DNA of 63,641 nt, filler included, from Nitrospinota bacterium (GTDB taxonomy: Bacteria > JAUXIQ01), in NCBI GenBank assembly GCA_030620925.1. It is 10 parts of 10 records of this genome, joined end to end, with 100 filler letters (N's around TTAATTAATTAA, not from the genome) between each part and the next. Parts side by side here need not be neighbours in the genome. Positions count along the whole stretch, not along the records: positions 46,680 to 55,076 come from JAUXIQ010000068.1; 9 more parts are not named here. The stretch is one strand, 5' to 3'. The translations under genes were made by a program, and so were the position numbers. This document shows positions 45,886 through 55,076 of this stretch, piece by piece (positions within the stretch are counted from its first letter, which is position 1; each line of letters begins with the position of its first letter). Below the pieces are notes generated by a model. That model worked only from the letters and a program-made list of their open reading frames with translations. It was not told the origin of the DNA and made no database searches.

Positions 45886-47043
45886 GTGAGTTACGAGACC
45901 TTAGAAGTGGAGCGGGAGGAATCTTCTGCAATCATAAAGTTGAACAGACCCGACAAACGAAACGCGCTGTCCATTCAGCTCAGGAACGAGATGGTGGAAT
46001 GTCTCGGGGAAATTGAAAGTGATGATGAAGTGAAGGCCGTGCTGGTTACCGGAAACGGCCCCGCGTTTTGCGCCGGTTTCGACCTGGAGGAGTTCAAGAA
46101 CCCGGACCCCGACCATATAAAGGCCATCCAGGAAAGTTCCCGGAGGTTTCACGCCGCGGTCACCGGTTTCCCCAAGCCGCTGGTGGCCGCCATCAACGGT
46201 CCGGCCATGGCGGGAGGGCTCGACCTGGCGCTCATGTGCGACATCCGCCTGGCCTCGGAGAAGGCCCTTTTCGGGCATCCCGAGCTGCGGTTCGGCTCCC
46301 ACGTGCTCTACGGGCTTGTCAAGGAAGCCGTGGGGGGAGGCATGGCCAGGGACCTCTGCCTGTCGGGCAGGAACATCGACGCCGCTGAGGCCCACCGCAT
46401 AGGTCTGGTGAGCAAGTTGACGACTCCGGATAAGCTGATGGAAGAATCGAGGGCCATGCTCGGAGAAATCTGCAAGTCACCCCTCAGAATTCTGGTCTCG
46501 ATGAAAGAGAGGGTCAAGAAATACTCTGCGGAAGCCATAGAAGGAGCCACCTCCAGCGAAGGCGATTCCTTTGTGGATANNNNNNNNNNNNNNNNNNNNN
46601 NNNNNNNNNNNNNNNNNNNNNNNTTAATTAATTAANNNNNNNNNNNNNNNNNNNNNNNNNNNNNNNNNNNNNNNNNNNNCATCCGCCTGGCCTCGGAGAA
46701 GGCCCTTTTCGGGCATCCCGAGCTGCGGTTCGGCTCCCACGTGCTCTACGGGCTTGTCAAGGAAGCAGTGGGGGGAGGCATGGCCAGGGACCTCTGCCTG
46801 TCGGGCAGGAACATCGACGCCGCTGAGGCCCACCGCATAGGCCTGGTGAGCAAGTTGACGACTCCGGATAAGCTGATGGAAGAATCGAGGGCCATGCTCG
46901 GAGAAATCTGTAAGTCACCACTCAGAATTCTGGTCTCGATGAAAGAGAGGGTCAAGAAATACTCTGCGGAAGCCATAGAAGGAGCCACCTCCAGCGAAGG
47001 CGATTCCTTTGTGGATATAATCAGAGAAGGGCTGAAAAAATAG
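45886..47043 (+). CDS. Enoyl-CoA hydratase/isomerase; one gene split by the linker, with a duplicated overlap
   Basis: LNRPDKRNA, FCAGFDL, KPLVAAING.AMAGGLD and HPE motifs; 46242-46579 is repeated at 46680-47017 and the stop is at 47043. Confidence 0.9.
46580..46679. other. Artificial linker between overlapping contigs
   Basis: N44-TTAATTAATTAA-N44 flanked by a 338-bp duplicated sequence. Confidence 0.99.
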
Positions 47044-47064
47044 CGGAGTGGATAAGGGAGAGAT

Positions 47065-48255
47065 ATGGAGAAGAATAAGAATGAGATGGAGAGCGTTCCG
47101 CGCTCAAGGGAGGACGATTATTCGGATGAGGCCATAGAAACGCGGCGCAGGTGGATCAAGGAGAAGACCGGCGTTGAGCTCAAGCATATGGCCGCACACT
47201 CGGTGACCGGTAAAGACGTGGAGGGGAACATCGAGAACTTCATCGGCGTGGTGCAGGTGCCCGTAGGGCTTGCCGGGCCGCTTAAGGTAAATGGTGAGCA
47301 CGCTGACGGCGTGTTCTACATTCCCCTGGCCACCACGGAGGGGGCGCTGGTGGCTTCCTACAGCAGGGGGATGAGGGCCATAACCGAATCGGGAGGCGCC
47401 GAGGCCCGCCTGTTCAGCGACCACACCCAGGTGACCCCCATGTTCGTCTTTCGGCGGACGGGTGAAGCGGCAGAGTTCCTGGATTGGGTGGACGCCAACT
47501 ACGATAGGATAAAGGAGGTGGCCGAATCCACCACCCGACACGGCAAGCTGCTGAAAATAGACAAGTACCTCATCGGGAGACGGGCGGCGCTCCGCATGTA
47601 CTACTACACCGGGGACGCCATGGGCCTCAACATGATAACCAACGCCTCGGACAGGGCGGCGAGGTTCATAGAAGAGCAGGTAAAGCCCGAGTCCGTTCTC
47701 TTCCCCAGCTCCATGGGCACGGACAAGAAATCGGCGGCCATCAACATGGTCACCGGGCGGGGAAAGAGGGTTTCTGTGGACGTAGTGCTGCCGGAAGAGG
47801 TGGTGGAAAAAAGGCTTCACACAACGCCCAGGGCAATGGCCCAGGGCTTCTTGACCACCGTGGTAGGGAATGCTCAGGCGGGCACCCTCACCCAGTCCAT
47901 GCACCCCGCCAACGGCCTCACAGCTCTGTTAATGGCAACTGGGCAGGACGTGGCCTACGTCCCCGACTCGGTGGCCACCATAACCACCATGGAGTTAACC
48001 GAAGAGGGCGGCCTTTACGTCAGTCTCTACATGCCCTGCCTCATCCTGGGCACCGTGGGGGGCGGCGTGAGCCTGGGCGGCTTCAGGGAGGCGCTGGAGA
48101 TAATGGACTGCTACGGTGCGGGCAAAGCCAGGAAGTTCGCCGAGATAGCCGCGGCGGCGGTCCTAGGCGGGGAGATTTCGACCCATGCAGCAACAATCAC
48201 CGGAGAGTTCTCCCAGGCTCATAACCGGCTGGGCCGCAACCGGCCCCGGGAATAA
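47065..48255 (+). CDS. Class I (NADPH-type) HMG-CoA reductase family protein, divergent
   Basis: ENFIG, ATTEGALVAS, GDAMGLNM, TDKK, HPAN, GQD.A, GTVGGG and C-terminal AH motifs. Confidence 0.9.
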   Translation: MEKNKNEMESVPRSREDDYSDEAIETRRRWIKEKTGVELKHMAAHSVTGKDVEGNIENFIGVVQVPVGLAGPLKVNGEHADGVFYIPLATTEGALVASYSRGMRAITESGGAEARLFSDHTQVTPMFVFRRTGEAAEFLDWVDANYDRIKEVAESTTRHGKLLKIDKYLIGRRAALRMYYYTGDAMGLNMITNASDRAARFIEEQVKPESVLFPSSMGTDKKSAAINMVTGRGKRVSVDVVLPEEVVEKRLHTTPRAMAQGFLTTVVGNAQAGTLTQSMHPANGLTALLMATGQDVAYVPDSVATITTMELTEEGGLYVSLYMPCLILGTVGGGVSLGGFREALEIMDCYGAGKARKFAEIAAAAVLGGEISTHAATITGEFSQAHNRLGRNRPRE

Positions 48256-48273
48256 AAAGGGCCGGTAAAAAAA

Positions 48274-48308
48274 CAGGCGCCTTTCCGATAAGAAGGAAAG
48301 ACGCCTGC
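48274..48308. terminator. Hairpin between convergent genes; terminator for the minus-strand operon
   Basis: CAGGCGCCTTTCC-8 nt-GGAAAGACGCCTG preceded by an A7 run (T run on the minus strand). Confidence 0.7.
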
Positions 48309-48322
48309 CGGGGGGGTAGGGA

Positions 48323-48697
48323 TCAATCACCTACCGTCTCGTATTCTTCCCACCACCTCACATCCACGGCTTTCAGCTTGGGGACTACTCTGCCTCTGAC
48401 CTTTACCTTCGCGCTGGCTTTGAGGGGTGCTTTACGTATCTGTTCCTCGATGGCCGTGCTTCCGCCCAGGATGTATACGTTACCATCATCGGTGATGAGC
48501 AAGTGCGCTATATGATCGATCGGACATACGCCCGCTTTTCCGTGCATTGTCCCATCGGCTGAGATGCAATATATGAAGCCGGTGAGAGTTGTTTCTCCCG
48601 TGGATATCTCGTCGGCTAGTGCGTTAGTTCCATAAAACATAACAAGCATTGCGGCCACAAGGAGCCCCGGGAGTATCAACCTCCGCGTCTGTTTCAT
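48323..48697 (-). CDS. Small secreted hypothetical protein with Cys/His cluster
   Basis: Signal peptide ending ALA; C..H..C..H..H; beta-rich TLTG...KVKVRG pattern (OB-fold-like); GGAGG RBS. Confidence 0.8.
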   Translation of the reverse strand: MKQTRRLILPGLLVAAMLVMFYGTNALADEISTGETTLTGFIYCISADGTMHGKAGVCPIDHIAHLLITDDGNVYILGGSTAIEEQIRKAPLKASAKVKVRGRVVPKLKAVDVRWWEEYETVGD

Positions 48698-48790
48698 TCC
48701 GGGTCACCTCCTTTCCTTTTAATGGAAAGGATATATCGCCTGGAAGTCTTTTCAACAGCGGGAGGTCATAATTTCATCTTCGCAGTAAGG

Positions 48791-49951
48791 TTAAAATTTT
48801 ACCTCCAACTGGGCCAGGAACTCGTTGTTTTCAACGTCTACGGCGCCGCCCGTGTCCTCATCGATCAAGCTGTATTCGAGTTTGACCTTCACGTTCTTCT
48901 GAATCTCGATGATGCCCGCCAGGGTGAAAACCTGCCAGTCCCAGGTGAGGACTTCGCCGGGGTCGTTGATGAGTCCGTTGTCCAGGTCGTTATACCTTAT
49001 CAGAACGACGATGGACTTGGGCCTGTTCCAGGGGGTCTTGAACTTGTAGGAGGGCTCTATATACCATCCTTTGCGGTCCAGGTCTCCGGTGCCGGTGCTT
49101 ATGTATTCGAACACACAATTTAATTTCTTCTGCCACTTATGAGTCAGGCGGAAGCCATACATGCTCTTCGAGTCTTCCAGTGAGCTGTAGCCGCCGGAGG
49201 CAAGCTCAGTATTGAGCGCCGAGACTTCATCCGGGGTAAGCTTGCTGAAGAAGACCCAGCCCAGAACGTCTATCTTACCGAACTGTCCGAAATCCTGTTT
49301 CCTTCCGGCGCCGAAACCTATCTCCTTGTTCTCGCTCTCGTCACCGACGTTGCGGTCTTCATGCAGGAACTTGGCGCCGCCGTCCTCCATCACCTTTTGC
49401 GTTGTCAGCTCTGTGGCGCTCTTTGCTATTCTCAGGCCGTTGGTGTAGGAGAAGAACCAGTAGGCGAAATCCAGCTTTCCGCCCACGGTGATCCCCAGGT
49501 CGTCATCCCGCCAGAAGGCGGAACCGTTCAGCGGGTAGGTCTCGGTGATCCGGCTTCGCTTGATGAAGCGGTCTTCCAGCCCCACCTTAATGAACGTTTT
49601 TCCGGGAAAACCGGCAAAGGTTACGTGGCCCTCTTCCAGGATGGTCTTGCCGTCCGTCATCGCTATTTCAGCCTTCATGCTGACGTTTTCTTTTAGTTTA
49701 ATCTTGGGGATCAGGTAGAACTGGTCGATCTTGAACTGGCTTTGTGAATCTTTGGCATCTCCCTGGGCGTCCCTGTATTCGATCTCTAGCTCGCCCCCTA
49801 TCTCCCATTTCTCTCCTTTAACGGATAAAAGGCCCCCTTCGTAGGGCTCGCCCACGTCGGCAAACACCTTTGTTGCTGGTGTTAAACCAAACACCAGCAA
49901 AAGAGCCAGCATTGTGATGAACAGTCGTGATGGAATTATTTTCATCCACAT
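48791..49951 (-). CDS. Outer-membrane beta-barrel porin-like protein
   Basis: Signal peptide, amphipathic beta strands, C-terminal FLAQLEVKF (BAM signal ending in Phe). Confidence 0.85.
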   Translation of the reverse strand: MWMKIIPSRLFITMLALLLVFGLTPATKVFADVGEPYEGGLLSVKGEKWEIGGELEIEYRDAQGDAKDSQSQFKIDQFYLIPKIKLKENVSMKAEIAMTDGKTILEEGHVTFAGFPGKTFIKVGLEDRFIKRSRITETYPLNGSAFWRDDDLGITVGGKLDFAYWFFSYTNGLRIAKSATELTTQKVMEDGGAKFLHEDRNVGDESENKEIGFGAGRKQDFGQFGKIDVLGWVFFSKLTPDEVSALNTELASGGYSSLEDSKSMYGFRLTHKWQKKLNCVFEYISTGTGDLDRKGWYIEPSYKFKTPWNRPKSIVVLIRYNDLDNGLINDPGEVLTWDWQVFTLAGIIEIQKNVKVKLEYSLIDEDTGGAVDVENNEFLAQLEVKF

Positions 49952-50202
49952 CTCCTTTCGAACAAATCAGATCAAGCGTTTAATACGAACAGAACTTATC
50001 TCGCCGTACCTAATATATATAGAAAACGGCGTGGTTAAATCCGGGCAGGGCATAATCTTTAAATTAATTACTGTTATATTTATATTCGCTAATTATAAAA
50101 TAGAAGTTAGGTTCGGGCAGGGAAATATTGGTTACCTTTTATAAAGTAAATAAATGCAGTCATTTAGAGTGTAAAGTTAATTGAACGGATATGGTGAATA
50201 TT

Positions 50203-50221
50203 GAGAATGATAATCAATATT
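50203..50221. promoter_or_regulatory. Fur box
   Basis: GAGAATGATAATCAATATT, 16/19 match to GATAATGATAATCATTATC. Confidence 0.8.
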
Positions 50222-50235
50222 AAATTATGTGTCAA
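50207..50235 (-). promoter_or_regulatory. sigma70 promoter of the porin operon, overlapped by the Fur box
   Basis: Minus strand TTGACA-N17-TATCAT. Confidence 0.75.
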
Positions 50236-50383
50236 GTGCTTTCTTCTTTTTGGGGAAATTTTTTTGATGGCTTTGGTACGGCGTGTTATCTATAGGCTGA
50301 TTTAGATGATATTCTAACTAAAAAGAAAACTTATTGTTCCCTTCAAGGATAAAGTGCTAGTTGCGTCCTTTCTTAATGTTTTT

Positions 50384-51064
50384 TCAAGTTTCAACAAGTT
50401 GTTTAGCGATGTTTTCTATTTCCAGCTCCAGGAAGCTCTTGGTCAGCCTGGCTATTTCACGATAAAAGCTTAATTGGGCTTCAGAGATAACCTTGTCGCA
50501 AAATTCAGGGATCCACCTGCTCAGGTGCTCTTCCATGAATTTCTTCTCAATCTTCAGGAAGTATATGGCTTCCTGTTTGTCTTCCTTCCGCCACGCCTCC
50601 CCTTCCTTCAGCAACAGCTCCCGCATGAACTCCAGCTCCACACTGATATGATCGGGGAGACCCTGGTAATCGGATTTATATTCCAGCCCCGTCGATTCGA
50701 TAAACTTCTTGACCTCAACGGTGGACATTCCCCAGAGTAAGCCACACTGGCCGTCATCCCTCTGGTGATGGACCGACTCATGGGGGGAAATATGTTTTCC
50801 GGGACCGATGAACAGCCTGGCGTATTCCACCGCCAGGTCCTCGAGCAGGTCGTCCCCTGCTTTCTGGAGAAAATCGTTCTCAAACTGAACCCCCAGGTCG
50901 GATAACGCCTGTAGAACAGGGGGCTCGGTAATTTGCTTTAAAAGGTCCGATTTCAGCTCCGTTCGGTAAATAACGGCCAGCAGACCGTAGACGTTGCTCC
51001 GCTCTTGAGACGTCTCGGCGAGGTCTTTCAACTCAACGTCGTTTTCCAAGGAACACATTTTCAT
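50384..51064 (-). CDS. TorD/DmsD family molybdoenzyme maturation chaperone
   Basis: EYARLF.GP, SPHES, PDHISVELEFM and F..EHL..W motifs; start chosen after GCGGGGA. Confidence 0.93.
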   Translation of the reverse strand: MKMCSLENDVELKDLAETSQERSNVYGLLAVIYRTELKSDLLKQITEPPVLQALSDLGVQFENDFLQKAGDDLLEDLAVEYARLFIGPGKHISPHESVHHQRDDGQCGLLWGMSTVEVKKFIESTGLEYKSDYQGLPDHISVELEFMRELLLKEGEAWRKEDKQEAIYFLKIEKKFMEEHLSRWIPEFCDKVISEAQLSFYREIARLTKSFLELEIENIAKQLVET

Positions 51065-51114
51065 TAATCCCCGCTTCATCATTAGTTTGAAGCCATCAGG
51101 GTGTGGTTTTAGTG

Positions 51115-51141
51115 GGGGAACCCTCCTTATGAAGGTTCCCC
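51115..51141. repeat. Intercistronic hairpin GGGGAACC...GGTTCCCC
   Basis: Inverted repeat between the catalytic-subunit and chaperone genes; same GGGGGAACC start as the element at 674. Confidence 0.5.
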
Positions 51142-51170
51142 TCATTTAACAACGCATCCGCGTAGGTTGG

Positions 51171-53642
51171 TTATGCTTTGGTGACCTTGACCACAGTGTC
51201 ATACCACCTCTGGCCGCCGGCGATGGGATCGGGGCTGTTAGGGATGACCCAGTTGGGGTGCATCCCGTTGTCCGCCCACCATTTGAGTTGGAGATCCACG
51301 TCTTCCTGTGTCCCCAGAGGCGAGGTCTTACCGGAAGCGTAACGTCCATATTCCCAGTGGCCGCAGTGATTGGAGATGGCGATGACCCCGGGGACTATCT
51401 CCTCGGTAACCCGTGCTTCGGTGGTTATCTCGTTTATGGAGGACTTTACCTTTATCTTCTGGCCGTCCTTTATGCCCAGCTCCTTTGCGGTGGCTGAGTT
51501 GATCCAGGCGGGGTTCTTGTGATAGAGCTCGGTGAGGTACTTGCAGTTCTGGGTGCGGGAATGGGTCTGCGTGTTGAGTTTGTAAGTGGTCAGGATCAAC
51601 TCACCTTTTTTCATCTTTTGATGCTCGGGGATAGGCACCCAGGTGGGTAGAGGTGGGAACCCCTTCTTCTTAAGCTCGTCTGAATAGATGGACAGCTTGC
51701 CCGTATGTCGTCCTATTTTATCCGGCTTGAACCCCAGGTAGGCCACCCCGTTTACCATCTGACCCACGTAGTTCTTGCCCTTCTTGCTGTCGTATTTGTC
51801 TCCTTTGAAGATCAGCCCTGTCTCCGGGTCTACGGTGGTCCCCTGGAGGTCTTTCTCGCTCAATTTTTTGGCGTAGAAGAGATAGTTGGGTTTGGCGTTG
51901 GGGTCATGCCAGGCGCCGTGTTTCTTCATGTACTCGAATCCACCAGCCTCTTTCACACCCTTGGTGTGTTCGCATGCGTCGCGCACGAACTCCTCCGCGG
52001 AGGCAAAGGGGAGCCATTTCTCCATCCCGCCCCCGATTCTCTTGGCCAGTTCGATGCACACGTCCTTGAAGTCCCGTACTTCCCCCAGTGGCTTGACGAT
52101 GGGCTGCCGGATGTAGTATTCGGGGATGCCGTTGTAGGAGACCATATCCTCCCAGTCCCAGCGTTCAAGATAGGTGGTGTCGGGCAGGATGATGTCGGCC
52201 AGGGCCGTCCCCTCACCGTAGAATGGGTCCACAGCTATGTGCATAGGGATGTAGTTTTCGTTGGAGAGGACTTCGATGTTATCCCTGCAGTCCCCGTTGG
52301 AGTACACGGCATTGTAGCAGTAGCTGATGTAGATTTCCGGCCTGCCATACTTGCCCTCTTTGATGAGCTTGAGTACCTGATGGCTGACGTGATGGGTGGG
52401 GAAGGCTATGTTCTCCCCGTCCAGTATTTTAAGTTTCTTCTTGGCTTTGTGAGGTTTGGGGTAGGAGTTCTTCCAGGGGGCTCCCACAGCTTTCAGGCGG
52501 CCCCCCTTATCTCCGATGTAACCGCAGATGGCCTCCAGCATCATGGCCGCCCGCTCGTTCTGGATGCCGTTGTAATGCTGTACCAGGCCTCTATATGACA
52601 ACACCGTTCCCGGTTTGGCCGTTGCGAAGCGGTAAGCTATCTCTTCTATCTTCTGTGAGGGTACTCCGCTTACGCCCTCCGCCCAACTTGAAGTGTACTG
52701 CTTGAGGTGGTCTTTCAGTTTCTGGACGGTGGCGTTGGTCCAGGCCTCAATGAACTTTCGGTCATAGAGCTCGTTCTGCATGATGTAGTTGGCCATGGCC
52801 AGGATGACCGCTCCGTCGGTGCCGGGGCGAACGGGGACCCATTCGTCGGACCTGGCGGCGGTGTTAGAAAACCTTACGTCGAAGGTTACCATGGGCACCC
52901 CCCTGTCATTTCTGGTTTTTATAATCCGTTGCGAAAGGGGGATATGAGAGGTGTGTGTCTCGAATATGTTGGAGCCGAAATTAAGGATGAAGTTGGTGTT
53001 CATGACGTCGGTGATGTCGTAGTGGTGCCCCCAGGTGAGCTCCTGTGCGGTCCACTTGATGCCTTCGCAGATGGAGGTGTGGTTCCCGATGGTAGCAGTC
53101 CCGTATGCGGTCAGGAAGTGGCTCTTGATAATTTTGCTGGAGCTGGCCTTCATGCGCCCGTAATGGAACATGACTTTCTCCGGGTGTCCTTCCTCCCGGA
53201 GCTTCTTCATGGGGGGGACGATCTCCTGGAAAGCCTGCTCCCAGGTGAGGCGCTTCCACTTGCCCTCGCCCCGCTTGCCCACCCGCTTCATGGGGTAGAG
53301 CAACCGGTCGGGGTCGTAAACCTGGTTGACACCCCCTTGCCCCCTGGCGCAGAGGACGCCTCCGGTGCGGGGTAGCTTGGGGTTGCCCTCTATTTTCACC
53401 AGCCTCCCGTCTTCAACGTATCCTATAATCCCGTCCCGGGCCACGCACTGCCAGCAGGCTGAGGGGATGGCCTTGCGCTCTTTCCCGGTGGCGGGGGAGA
53501 TGTCCCTGCCCGCTTCAATGAGGGGGTTCCCTTTCAGTGAGCCTTGGGCCAGAACCTTTTCTGCGCCGAAACCCGAAATAAAAGTGCCTATACCTGCGCC
53601 CAGCTTAAGGAAATTTCGCCTGGTCATTTTCTTCTGCATCAT
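51171..53642 (-). CDS. Tat-exported Mo/W-bisPGD oxidoreductase catalytic subunit (ArrA/TtrA/AnrA-like branch of the DMSO reductase family)
   Basis: TRRNFLK Tat motif; CWQCVARD...C FS0 motif; YDPDRL..P; YGR; NHTSICE; PGTD.A; ADIILPD..YLER. Confidence 0.93.
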   Translation of the reverse strand: MMQKKMTRRNFLKLGAGIGTFISGFGAEKVLAQGSLKGNPLIEAGRDISPATGKERKAIPSACWQCVARDGIIGYVEDGRLVKIEGNPKLPRTGGVLCARGQGGVNQVYDPDRLLYPMKRVGKRGEGKWKRLTWEQAFQEIVPPMKKLREEGHPEKVMFHYGRMKASSSKIIKSHFLTAYGTATIGNHTSICEGIKWTAQELTWGHHYDITDVMNTNFILNFGSNIFETHTSHIPLSQRIIKTRNDRGVPMVTFDVRFSNTAARSDEWVPVRPGTDGAVILAMANYIMQNELYDRKFIEAWTNATVQKLKDHLKQYTSSWAEGVSGVPSQKIEEIAYRFATAKPGTVLSYRGLVQHYNGIQNERAAMMLEAICGYIGDKGGRLKAVGAPWKNSYPKPHKAKKKLKILDGENIAFPTHHVSHQVLKLIKEGKYGRPEIYISYCYNAVYSNGDCRDNIEVLSNENYIPMHIAVDPFYGEGTALADIILPDTTYLERWDWEDMVSYNGIPEYYIRQPIVKPLGEVRDFKDVCIELAKRIGGGMEKWLPFASAEEFVRDACEHTKGVKEAGGFEYMKKHGAWHDPNAKPNYLFYAKKLSEKDLQGTTVDPETGLIFKGDKYDSKKGKNYVGQMVNGVAYLGFKPDKIGRHTGKLSIYSDELKKKGFPPLPTWVPIPEHQKMKKGELILTTYKLNTQTHSRTQNCKYLTELYHKNPAWINSATAKELGIKDGQKIKVKSSINEITTEARVTEEIVPGVIAISNHCGHWEYGRYASGKTSPLGTQEDVDLQLKWWADNGMHPNWVIPNSPDPIAGGQRWYDTVVKVTKA

Positions 53643-53691
53643 TCTCTCCTTCTCAGAACCGGTCAGCATTACATATTGAAGAGTATCTCTG

Positions 53692-54537
53692 CTACTTGTA
53701 TTGAACCGGCGTCCGGCCTTCTCTGATAGCCAGCGTAGCCTTGTTCATTTTGTTGGACTCTACTATCTGGGCATAGAAGTCGTCATCGAGGCCGATGTAA
53801 TAGCACTGGGGATCGGTGTTTAGCTCCGGCCTCAAAACGCGCGTCTGGTTAGAGGCTATGAGCCGTGATAACTTGCTTGTAGGGTCGTTGAGGTTGCCTG
53901 CCAGTCGCGCATGCCCCTGGCAGGTGTTGACGCATGAGGGGATGACGCCCTCTGCAAGCCTGTGGGCGCAGAGGGAGCATTTATCAGCGGCTTTCATCTC
54001 CAGCATGCCACCGGCGGCTTTCACGGGGTCCAGATACCGGACGCCATAGGGGCAATCATCTACGCAGGCACCGCAGCCGATGCATCTGTCCTGGTCTATC
54101 AAGACTATCCCGTCCGGGCGTTGGTAAGTGGCGCGTTTTTTATATTTCTTTTTGGTACCGTCGGGAAAGGTTAATACTGCTTCTTCCTCATCCACAGGGC
54201 AGTTCTCTATGCAAGGTGGGTTTGCGCAGTGGTTGCAGAGCCAGGGGATGAAAGTGCGTTTCACCTGCGGGTAGGTGCCCGCTACCTTTTCGCCCACACC
54301 GGCGCGAAACACACCCAGCCGAAGGTCGAACTCAGTCTTACATGCCACCGCGCAGGCGTTGCATCCTATGCAACGCCTCAGGTCCACAAGGAAGCCCCAT
54401 CTTACGGGGCCTGTAGACCTCCGCACCGCCTCCGCCGTTCCGGATAAGGCAGCCAAGCCCAGGCCCGTCGCCAGCCCGGCTCCTAGGGCAAGTTTCATAA
54501 ATTCGCTTCGGCTCACCTCTTCATAATCTTCTCCCAT
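53692..54537 (-). CDS. 4Fe-4S dicluster electron-transfer subunit (DmsB/ArrB-like)
   Basis: CIGCNACAVAC, CNHCANPPC...CP, CIGCGACVDDCP and KCSLC...PSCVNTC motifs; N-terminal signal-like peptide. Confidence 0.95.
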   Translation of the reverse strand: MGEDYEEVSRSEFMKLALGAGLATGLGLAALSGTAEAVRRSTGPVRWGFLVDLRRCIGCNACAVACKTEFDLRLGVFRAGVGEKVAGTYPQVKRTFIPWLCNHCANPPCIENCPVDEEEAVLTFPDGTKKKYKKRATYQRPDGIVLIDQDRCIGCGACVDDCPYGVRYLDPVKAAGGMLEMKAADKCSLCAHRLAEGVIPSCVNTCQGHARLAGNLNDPTSKLSRLIASNQTRVLRPELNTDPQCYYIGLDDDFYAQIVESNKMNKATLAIREGRTPVQYK

Positions 54538-55076
54538 CAGATTTATCCCTCCCTCTCTTGGAATTATTATGTGTGGCCACGTCACTTAAACATAATTCAG
54601 GTGCATAAACAAAACGCGATGTGCACGTATAATTGCATTTATATATGCAATAATCGTTCTAAATCAAGGGTTACATTAACTTTTGTTAACACTTGGAAGC
54701 TGATATTTTTTGTTTCGCCTCTGTTCTCCAAGGCACTTAAGAAGGGATTTGCCCGTATGCCCTTTAAATAAGGGGTAGATGGGGTGGTGTGAGGTTCTAT
54801 TTTAAATATCTGTGGATGGATTTACCTGTTATTTTTTATGATTCAAATTATTTTTCTTCGAGTTCATGCCTTGAAAAAAACCATTTTTATATCACCAAAC
54901 GGTAACATAGGTTACTCTTTAGTAACCGGTGAGCCTTAAAACTCGGTATAATGCCGGATGTCAAAGGTTATGTTTCTTTACCTTCTCCCAGAGGTTTTTC
55001 CTGCTGATCGCTCGCGGTCGATTACTCTAACTATAAAAGTGGGACAATGATTGGAAGCAGATCATTAGCGGGGTCC

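Follow-up and report, generated by a model that had tools for sequence, protein, structure and literature searches.

A 63,641-nt stretch of DNA from a Nitrospinota bacterium (assembly GCA_030620925.1), hereafter the window, carries on its minus strand a compact two-gene locus (48323-50235) in which a promoter overlapped by a predicted Fur-type operator precedes genes for an outer-membrane porin and a small secreted Cys/His protein. The window consists of contigs of a metagenome-assembled genome joined by runs of N, and the locus lies entirely within one contig of 8397 nt (window 46680-55076). The host is an uncultured marine-sediment bacterium whose assembly (G000) comprises 2.5 Mb in 445 contigs and is 89% complete, so absences from it are not proof of absence. 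In minus-strand order the locus contains the promoter, a leader of about 250 nt, a 386-aa barrel open reading frame (ORF), a 93-nt spacer, a 124-aa ORF and a hairpin terminator. A porin under Fur-type control is the best reading of this locus, and the repeated Fur and iron contexts of related porins lend it weight. The more specific proposal, that the operon encodes an iron-starvation-induced outer-membrane porin with a lineage-specific periplasmic partner, is given here about an even chance of being correct; within it, Fur binding, co-transcription, iron as the substrate and every function of the small protein are what we infer from the features described below.

A consensus scan identified a perfect -35 hexamer, TTGACA (50230-50235, minus strand), and a -10 hexamer, TATCAT (50207-50212, minus strand), separated by a 17-nt spacer. 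Together they match the sigma-70 consensus at 11 of 12 positions, a score of at least 11/12 being reached by 110 promoter-like sites genome-wide. The -10 lies inside a Fur-type operator (50203-50221) that agrees at 16 of 19 positions with the classical 19-base Fur consensus. The first-pass annotation of this DNA had described just such a promoter with its -10 inside a 16/19 Fur box, and all of its parts were present on the minus strand. The box was unique in the window at up to three mismatches, a match of this quality being reached in 1 of 100 whole-window shuffles, and it was the sole match with up to three mismatches, hence the best, in the 2.5-Mb assembly. Because the region is AT-rich, the 432-nt intergenic stretch (32% GC) was also shuffled locally with dinucleotide composition maintained, with 16/19 attained in 2 of 2000 cases. 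Sharing letters as they do, the -10 and the box are not independent observations, while the perfect -35 is independent of both. The operator can be read as two overlapping 7-1-7 half sites (12/14 each), which is the architecture of Fur boxes, and it is enclosed by a perfect 8-nt inverted repeat, AATATTGA-N9-TCAATATT (50197-50221), detected in a repeat scan. As a prediction from sequence, this is a statistically unusual Fur-type site positioned over a -10 element. The genome encodes two candidate regulators of the Fur family (PF01475). One, on contig C305 (129.6 bits, 142-aa ORF), is Fur-like and has ferric uptake regulators as its best NCBIfam models, with scores below their cut-offs; the other, on contig C339, is PerR-like. 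No Fur-type box was found near the fur gene of the host genome.

The first gene of the pair (48791-49951, minus strand) is a 386-aa ORF that ends in a C-terminal phenylalanine. Its probable start is the third codon (49945), chosen for the spacing of the ribosome-binding site, AGGAG lying six bases before it; the copy in the public protein collection (P0001) is accordingly 384 aa long. The N terminus, MKIIPSRLFITMLALLLVFGLTPATKVFA, reads in translation as a Sec signal peptide, and its last residue, F386, is conserved without exception in 27 sequences. An AlphaFold2 model (predicted local distance difference test, pLDDT, 81; predicted template modelling score, pTM, 0.78) contains 16 long antiparallel strands, with a long loop (residues 128-149) carrying a short helix (141-146) between strands 5 and 6 that corresponds to L3 of classical porins. 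Comparison with the PDB by Foldseek and VIA-align placed OprP (Z 25.9) and OprO (Z 25.7) first, each at 15% identity, followed by OmpK37, OmpF, OmpC and DcaP at Z of about 24-25; more than 50 porin entries scored between Z 23 and 26. The Foldseek check proposed in the first-pass annotation thus returned a clear porin fold for the barrel, and its observation that the protein is too short for a TonB-dependent receptor and has no evident plug agrees with both the 16-strand model and the lack of any match between the barrel and the plug and 22-strand barrel models (PF07715 and PF00593). Judged by its model, the barrel is a classical 16-strand porin and not a TonB-dependent receptor, and the modelled fold by itself gives no substrate.

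Profile searches likewise bore out the earlier remark that neither gene could be assigned to a named family. For the barrel, nothing in Pfam or NCBIfam exceeded its threshold and no NCBIfam model matched at expectation values (E) up to 1. Porin_4 (PF13609) gave no match to the barrel at E up to 0.1 and none in the genome, with weak matches in 5 of 27 family members (best E 1.8e-05), and Porin_O_P (PF07396) matched neither the barrel nor its 27 relatives, nor anything in the genome at E up to 0.01. A family-profile search of PDB sequences returned one chance match (E 1.6). By these searches the barrel family is outside all Pfam, NCBIfam and PDB sequence models. A protein language model placed the barrel beside unnamed clusters, two clusters labelled 'LbtU family siderophore porin' (0.97 and 0.96) and Porin_O_P clusters, and its similarity to the LbtU clusters is to be taken as a lead only. 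The barrel is acidic, as first described (isoelectric point 5.04, net charge -11 over the last 345 aa). The same acidic composition was common to all 24 family members computed, whatever their gene context, so that it is uninformative here.

The family is small: a collection of 5.8 billion yielded 30 proteins, and 185,579 species genomes yielded 25 full-length loci. Around these 25 loci, 150 ORFs within about 3 kb were scanned, one short ORF being left out. In seven loci, all from Nitrospirota (L005, L007, L010, L011, L014, L024, L025), the porin gene is immediately preceded by a FUR-family gene and followed by genes for a fused double permease and a TOBE_2 ATP-binding cassette (ABC) ATPase; L012 has the same downstream pair, with its upstream side beyond the contig end. 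The best NCBIfam models for the Fur-like genes beside related porins are ferric uptake regulators. Farther upstream, some fur-porin loci contain HmuY-like proteins, ApbE and a TonB-dependent receptor, and L010 also contains FMN_bind. No substrate-binding protein was seen in these clusters. An alignment of the seven fur promoters shows conservation of the -35 (TTGAAA), the -10 (TAGAAT) and a Fur-like box, GATTATGATAATGAATCGC; in five of the seven, no more than 7 of 200 shuffles equalled the match to the box. In a 38-row tree, from which L004, L017 and L020 (ORFs cut or unclear) and 11 collection proteins were left out, the Fur-ABC loci group as a single clade. The fur/porin/permease/ATPase arrangement occurs in Nitrospirota and Manganitrophaceae, an example being L005:5441-9894.

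A wider set of relatives came from 24 weak partial matches (L026-L049) in the species-genome search, of which 16 were examined. These 16 porins, from Gammaproteobacteria, are 387-453 aa long and carry a coiled coil at the N terminus, and a profile of 14 of them aligned with the window family over 326 columns (hhalign 98.9%, E 1e-17). By profile comparison the gammaproteobacterial coiled-coil porins are remote homologues of the window porin. A scan of genes downstream of the porin (23 ORFs from 13 gammaproteobacterial loci) identified FMN_bind in 9 of 10 scanned ORFs of about 180 aa that follow the porin, and in 11 of the 12 loci scanned the ORF after that encoded a PepSY_TM protein. Of the 16 loci, 8 had a Fur-like site scoring 14/19 or better at 24-154 nt before the porin gene, compared with none of 24 upstream regions in the closer family. 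In these eight, 1 to 13 of 200 shuffles equalled the observed match; several of the eight belong to related Shewanella or Colwellia genomes and so are not independent. Published work links PepSY-like flavinylation clusters to iron assimilation and to repression by Fur (Meheust et al. 2021, PMC8238504), in a paper where the word 'porin' occurs 0 times. The gene contexts support the view that Fur and iron associations of related porins recur in two other lineages, Nitrospirota and Gammaproteobacteria. One gammaproteobacterial porin/FMN_bind/PepSY_TM operon is found at L038:5044-7801, with Fur-like boxes in this group such as GCAAATGATAATGATTTGC. Five of the 14 gammaproteobacterial porins also weakly match the NCBIfam model of the selenite/tellurite operon porin ExtI. 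Within the closer family, longer relatives of about 410-460 aa (P0005-P0009, P0012 and others) have an N-terminal extension that the window barrel lacks. Weak Trimer_CC matches in this segment of 3 of 27 relatives suggest that it forms a stalk of coiled-coil type like that of the gammaproteobacterial porins.

The second gene (48323-48697, minus strand) encodes a secreted protein of 124 aa with the motif C44-x13-C58-P-x-D-H62-x2-H65, defined from its translation, an AlphaFold2 model and an alignment. The first-pass annotation had noted a 124-aa secreted protein with a C..H..C..H..H pattern followed by a terminator, and all of this was present as C44, H52, C58, H62 and H65, the one qualification being that H52 varies among homologues. 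Read from the translation, a Sec-type signal peptide ends at ALA|DE, which leaves residues 29-124 as the mature protein. Tat (twin-arginine) export was considered and set aside, since the TRR motif is not kept in homologues and Sec export is likelier. The model (pLDDT 78 overall, about 90 in the core) has five to six strands and one helix. The Foldseek check, with VIA-align, returned generic oligonucleotide/oligosaccharide-binding (OB) folds only (SSB, PriB, RPA, the NlpE C-domain, YgiW and SilF), with a best Z of 7.2, a level common among OB folds. On this model the protein is a secreted single OB-fold domain.

The 22 further sequences of its family are likewise unnamed and have no Pfam domain. 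When the 23 are aligned, G40, C44, G56, C58, T69 and G72 are invariant, P59 is present in at least 90%, and H62 and H65 are kept in 21 of 23; this conservation yields the motif C-x13-C-P-x-[DE]-H-x2-H. By position and conservation C44, C58, H62 and H65 would suit a metal site. Alternatively, C44 and C58 could be a disulfide with two histidines nearby. A C-terminal WWEEYETVGD tail is limited to the nearest group of the window protein (P0031, P0032, P0038, P0039). The relatives P0002-P0004, P0032, P0038 and P0039 have identities of 68-88%. The family DUF6370, proposed by the language model (0.90), was rejected, as hmmscan gave no match at E up to 10 and no PF19897 protein was found in the genome. 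Outside the window, the porin/small-gene pair is probably kept in one close relative, in which the porin (P0003) and the small protein (P0031) are each on a single 5124-nt contig. The phylum was otherwise sampled by the window genome and one sister genome, the latter 89% complete. A second copy of the small protein in the window genome, 47% identical, is located on contig C33 (29752-30117; locus L065:5744-6118) beside Hsp20, 2 kb from a second Mo oxidoreductase and iron-sulfur (FeS) subunit pair. According to our reading of its translated ORFs, the sister genome has two tandem copies beside a dehydratase-like gene and one beside flagellar and sigma-54 genes.

According to the proposed mechanism, when iron is sufficient a Fur-like repressor would sit on the operator that covers the -10 of this strong sigma-70 promoter and block RNA polymerase. 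When iron is scarce, a single transcript would run from the leader of about 250 nt through the porin and small-protein genes to the terminator. The porin, of the OmpF/OprP type and probably trimeric, with L3 as its constriction loop, would admit small iron species, either Fe2+ or a small ferric chelate, without TonB. The co-expressed OB-fold protein would then take over the metal through its 2-Cys/2-His cluster or dock on the periplasmic face of the porin. A bolder version, which we put forward tentatively and regard as somewhat improbable, holds that the pair represents a third form of porin-based iron uptake under Fur control, independent of TonB and free of flavin, with a new OB-fold metalloprotein (C-x13-CPxDHxxH). 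In that form the metalloprotein would take metal from the pore or keep it reduced.

Several observations weigh against an iron-starvation porin with a periplasmic partner. The half sites of the operator match the Fur and PerR 7-1-7 consensus sequences about equally, according to our reading of the scan output, and on sequence grounds the operator is not separable from a PerR-type box. No other good Fur-type site precedes an iron gene in the genome. The next-best sites lie before genes for a LysR regulator, a halogenase-like protein, elongation factor G, a secretin, a radical S-adenosylmethionine enzyme, methylmalonyl-CoA mutase and similar proteins, so that a Fur regulon is not demonstrable there. 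For a simple Fur promoter, a leader this long is unusual. Contigs from four sequencing runs were compared with the locus, no RNA run containing the stretch being listed; the habitats that yielded this sequence are marine sediments and cold seeps. In run X1, from a 97%-identical population, none of 16 intergenic differences falls within 50199-50238, which is not significant given about 1.5 differences expected in the promoter core; a second run, X3, has 9 differences of unlisted position, possibly inside the box. Metagenome scans with narrow alignments, one for the small protein and one for the porin clade, found no relative, so the promoter is not comparable across species. In the 38-row tree the window clade (the window porin, P0002, P0003 and P0004) is a separate deep branch outside the Fur-ABC clade. 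The top structural matches of the barrel are the anion porins OprP and OprO. No such porin occurs in the sister genome (89% complete), and none of the four paralogues of the small protein in the two genomes adjoins one. The link between porin and small protein drawn in the first-pass annotation thus stands in the window and probably in a single close relative, and does not extend to the paralogues elsewhere.

The neighbourhoods of the other close relatives add to these points. PstS and PstCAB-type genes are beside the porin in L001 and L008, TupA adjoins it in L015 and a ModA-like binding protein in L006, molybdenum cofactor (Moco) biosynthesis genes occur in L022, and EB_dh in L020 and L022. 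A PhnD-like binding protein is beside the porin in L002, L003, L013 and L023 and two genes away in L009. The segments of loops L3 (SRKTE..AFWRDDD) and L4 (DDDDN) are conserved in all genomic contexts, which indicates that pore chemistry does not track the neighbouring genes. The gene contexts thus make it plain that iron is not the sole association of this porin family; the remaining loci have no telling neighbours. The iron-porin interpretation first suggested for this DNA is therefore upheld in its porin, its unusual operator, its Fur-like gene and the Fur and iron contexts of relatives, and is tempered by those other relatives beside PstS, PhnD-like proteins and TupA. For the check it had named, on feoAB or FTR1 partners, searches of the host genome found no link of either to the operon. 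In this assembly there was no match for a TonB-dependent receptor barrel, FeoB_C, FTR1, Nramp, PepSY_TM, Porin_4 or Porin_O_P, and the FeoB_N profile gave weak generic GTPase matches only; the lack of matches for the first four counts in favour of the iron reading. In the five PhnD-like loci, which come from several phyla, the PhnD-like protein is followed by a HAMP-GGDEF protein or a HAMP-PAS histidine kinase with no ABC permeases; from its gene content this arrangement looks like a binding-protein-dependent sensor module.

Three other explanations of the locus were weighed against this evidence. The same-strand genes that end 432 nt before the porin encode an FeS subunit, a molybdenum/tungsten (Mo/W) bis(molybdopterin guanine dinucleotide) oxidoreductase and a TorD-type chaperone, and the porin might serve this predicted periplasmic enzyme by admitting molybdate/tungstate or a substrate oxyanion, for which thiosulfate, polysulfide, tetrathionate or an arsenate-type compound are candidates. 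The Fur-like box would then be due to chance, or would couple an iron-sulfur-rich respiratory module to iron supply. We consider this unlikely. The terminator scan found none between the Mo-enzyme genes and the porin promoter, some relatives adjoin the TupA, ModA-like, Moco or EB_dh genes listed above, the closest structures are the anion-specific OprP and OprO, and the second small-protein paralogue is itself close to another Mo oxidoreductase. However, the gene pair has its own near-consensus promoter behind a 32%-GC spacer, the lead of OprP and OprO over general porins is only about 1 Z unit, the barrel has no Porin_O_P match, no Moco riboswitch or other Rfam element was found in the leader, and Mo/W-related neighbours occur in just 3 or 4 of the 25 relatives' loci. 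The operator could instead respond to another regulator of the Fur family, PerR-like or sensing Mn or Zn, in which case the operon would answer to peroxide or to a shortage of Mn or Zn. The PerR-like gene on C339 and the nearly equal fit of the half sites to both consensus sequences speak for such a regulator, and a 2-Cys/2-His cluster is a typical zinc ligand set. There is also a metal-uptake porin for Mn2+, MnoP (PMC6011978). Against this are the high match, 16/19, to the classical iron-Fur consensus, the ferric-uptake-regulator-like genes and iron-type modules that adjoin related porins, and a genome with no Nramp match, Zn-uptake families not having been searched for; we regard control by such a regulator as very unlikely.

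A more mundane account is that of a general-diffusion porin whose AT-rich promoter resembles a Fur box by chance, paired with a periplasmic OB-fold protein that acts in stress or associates with porins, like YgiW, YdeI or SipA, and whose cysteines form a disulfide and not a metal site. Since searches of the genome revealed no further porin of the Porin_4 or Porin_O_P type, this barrel may be the main porin of the cell; its fold equals that of OmpF and OmpC within about 1.5 Z, YgiW is among the OB-fold matches (Z 6.2), and bacterial OB-fold (BOF) proteins are reported to bind OmpF, OmpD and OmpA (PMC6370654). The want of a demonstrable regulon and the unrelated contexts of the small-protein paralogues fit this account too. 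Yet it must treat as accidental an operator that is the single best match in 2.5 Mb and was equalled in so few local shuffles, as well as the recurrence of Fur and iron contexts among related porins. The failure to find the porin in the sister genome argues against a core housekeeping role, the BOF Pfam model matched none of 7 homologues even at E up to 10, and H62 and H65 are conserved along with the cysteine pair. A chance box before an ordinary porin is an unlikely explanation, and if it were correct the locus would amount to an ordinary porin gene with an unrelated neighbour.

The concept of TonB-independent, porin-like metal uptake is already known from LbtU, FupA/FslE, MnoP and the PepSY-like systems, while the present porin family and its OB-fold partner are unnamed. 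Among these, LbtU of Legionella is described as a Fur-regulated, TonB-independent receptor for ferri-rhizoferrin (PMC11705809). LbtU of L. pneumophila (NF033652), near which the language model places the window barrel, is an outer-membrane protein of porin size that imports an iron species, as proposed for the barrel. In contrast to LbtU, the window barrel goes undetected by NF033652, which requires at least 90 bits and gives no match in this genome at E up to 1; the operon has neither rhizoferrin synthesis nor LbtC-type genes close by, and it co-encodes an OB-fold protein. The porins of the FMN_bind/PepSY_TM operons share with the window remote homology, Fur-like boxes upstream and a periplasmic partner gene immediately after the porin, but differ from it in sequence (about 17% identity), in their N-terminal coiled coil and in having flavoprotein and PepSY_TM partners; PepSY_TM is part of the gammaproteobacterial systems and was not found in the window's genome. 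OprP and OprO of Pseudomonas aeruginosa (2o4v and 4rjw) are 16-strand porins like the window barrel and align over 305-307 residues with a root-mean-square deviation (rmsd) of 3.3-3.4, but they share 15% identity with a barrel that has no Porin_O_P match and lead OmpF/OmpC-type porins by just 1-1.5 Z or so. OprP and OprO are starvation-induced porins encoded with an ABC uptake system, an arrangement comparable to that of the relatives beside pstS (L001 and L008).

Control of MnoP is exerted by Mur. MnoP of Bradyrhizobium japonicum is described as a specific, TonB-independent outer-membrane channel for Mn2+ (PMC6011978), and the Francisella proteins FupA, for ferrous iron, and FslE, for a siderophore, are presented as TonB-independent outer-membrane channels, the FslE-containing siderophore operon being Fur-regulated (PMC5378763). 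MnoP and FupA/FslE are precedents by function; their families are confined to their own lineages, and a sequence relation to the window porin was neither seen nor tested. For the small protein, YgiW (1nnx) aligns over 70 residues (rmsd 2.7) and is tied with dozens of unrelated OB folds. To our knowledge the C-x13-CPxDHxxH motif is not a feature of BOF proteins. These proteins (YgiW, YdeI, SipA) are characterized as small secreted OB folds that bind porins (PMC6370654), and their porin binding provides a non-metal precedent for a porin/OB-fold pair.

Beyond a few pathogens, the passage of iron across the outer membrane independently of TonB receptors is poorly understood, and Fe2+ is usually assumed to diffuse through general porins. 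Here, a porin superfamily that had no sequence model recurs near Fur genes, Fur-like boxes, ABC importers and periplasmic flavoproteins, in lineages that include the environmentally important Nitrospirota and marine Gammaproteobacteria; the phylum of the window genome is scarcely sampled. If the proposed role of the window operon is correct, a 2-Cys/2-His OB-fold protein would be a new kind of periplasmic partner, in a compact two-gene system open to expression and measurement.

The remaining features of the transcription unit are as follows. The AT-rich leader (49952-50200, minus strand; about 250 nt, 32% GC) is delimited on the assumption that transcription starts just after the -10. At E up to 1, Rfam models had no match in 47900-50500, which argues against a riboswitch, Moco or other, in the leader, whose predicted fold is ordinary (z = -0.87). 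A separate Fur-controlled small RNA in the leader was considered and is unlikely, given this ordinary fold score and the absence of an internal terminator in the scan. The leader contains the G+C-rich word CGGGCAGGG twice (50042-50050 and 50114-50122, 72 nt apart) and an imperfect palindrome, CGCCGT..TATATATA..ACGGCG (50002-50031). Between the two genes, the 93-nt spacer (48698-48790, minus strand) contains a GGAGG ribosome-binding site 5' of the small gene, read from the sequence, and a weak promoter-like site (9/12, consensus scan) at 48755-48728. The terminator scan placed an intrinsic terminator at 48272-48309 (minus strand), with a 15-bp stem that includes 8 G-C pairs and a T run; at 48309-48272 it also serves a convergent gene for 3-hydroxy-3-methylglutaryl-CoA (HMG-CoA) reductase.

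On the other side of the operon, the predicted periplasmic Mo/W oxidoreductase module occupies window 50384-54585 (minus strand) in the order FeS subunit, catalytic subunit, TorD-type chaperone. The catalytic subunit is Phs/Psr/Ttr/Arr-like and under every equivalog cut-off, with a weak match to a Tat signal and with PhsA as its best NCBIfam model (349 bits, below cut-off). No membrane anchor for the module was seen up to the contig end at 55076. At the opposite end of the contig, the same enoyl-CoA hydratase C-terminal sequence flanks the N-run junction (window 45886-46635 and 46741-47043), indicating that the two neighbouring contigs overlap or are duplicated in the assembly.

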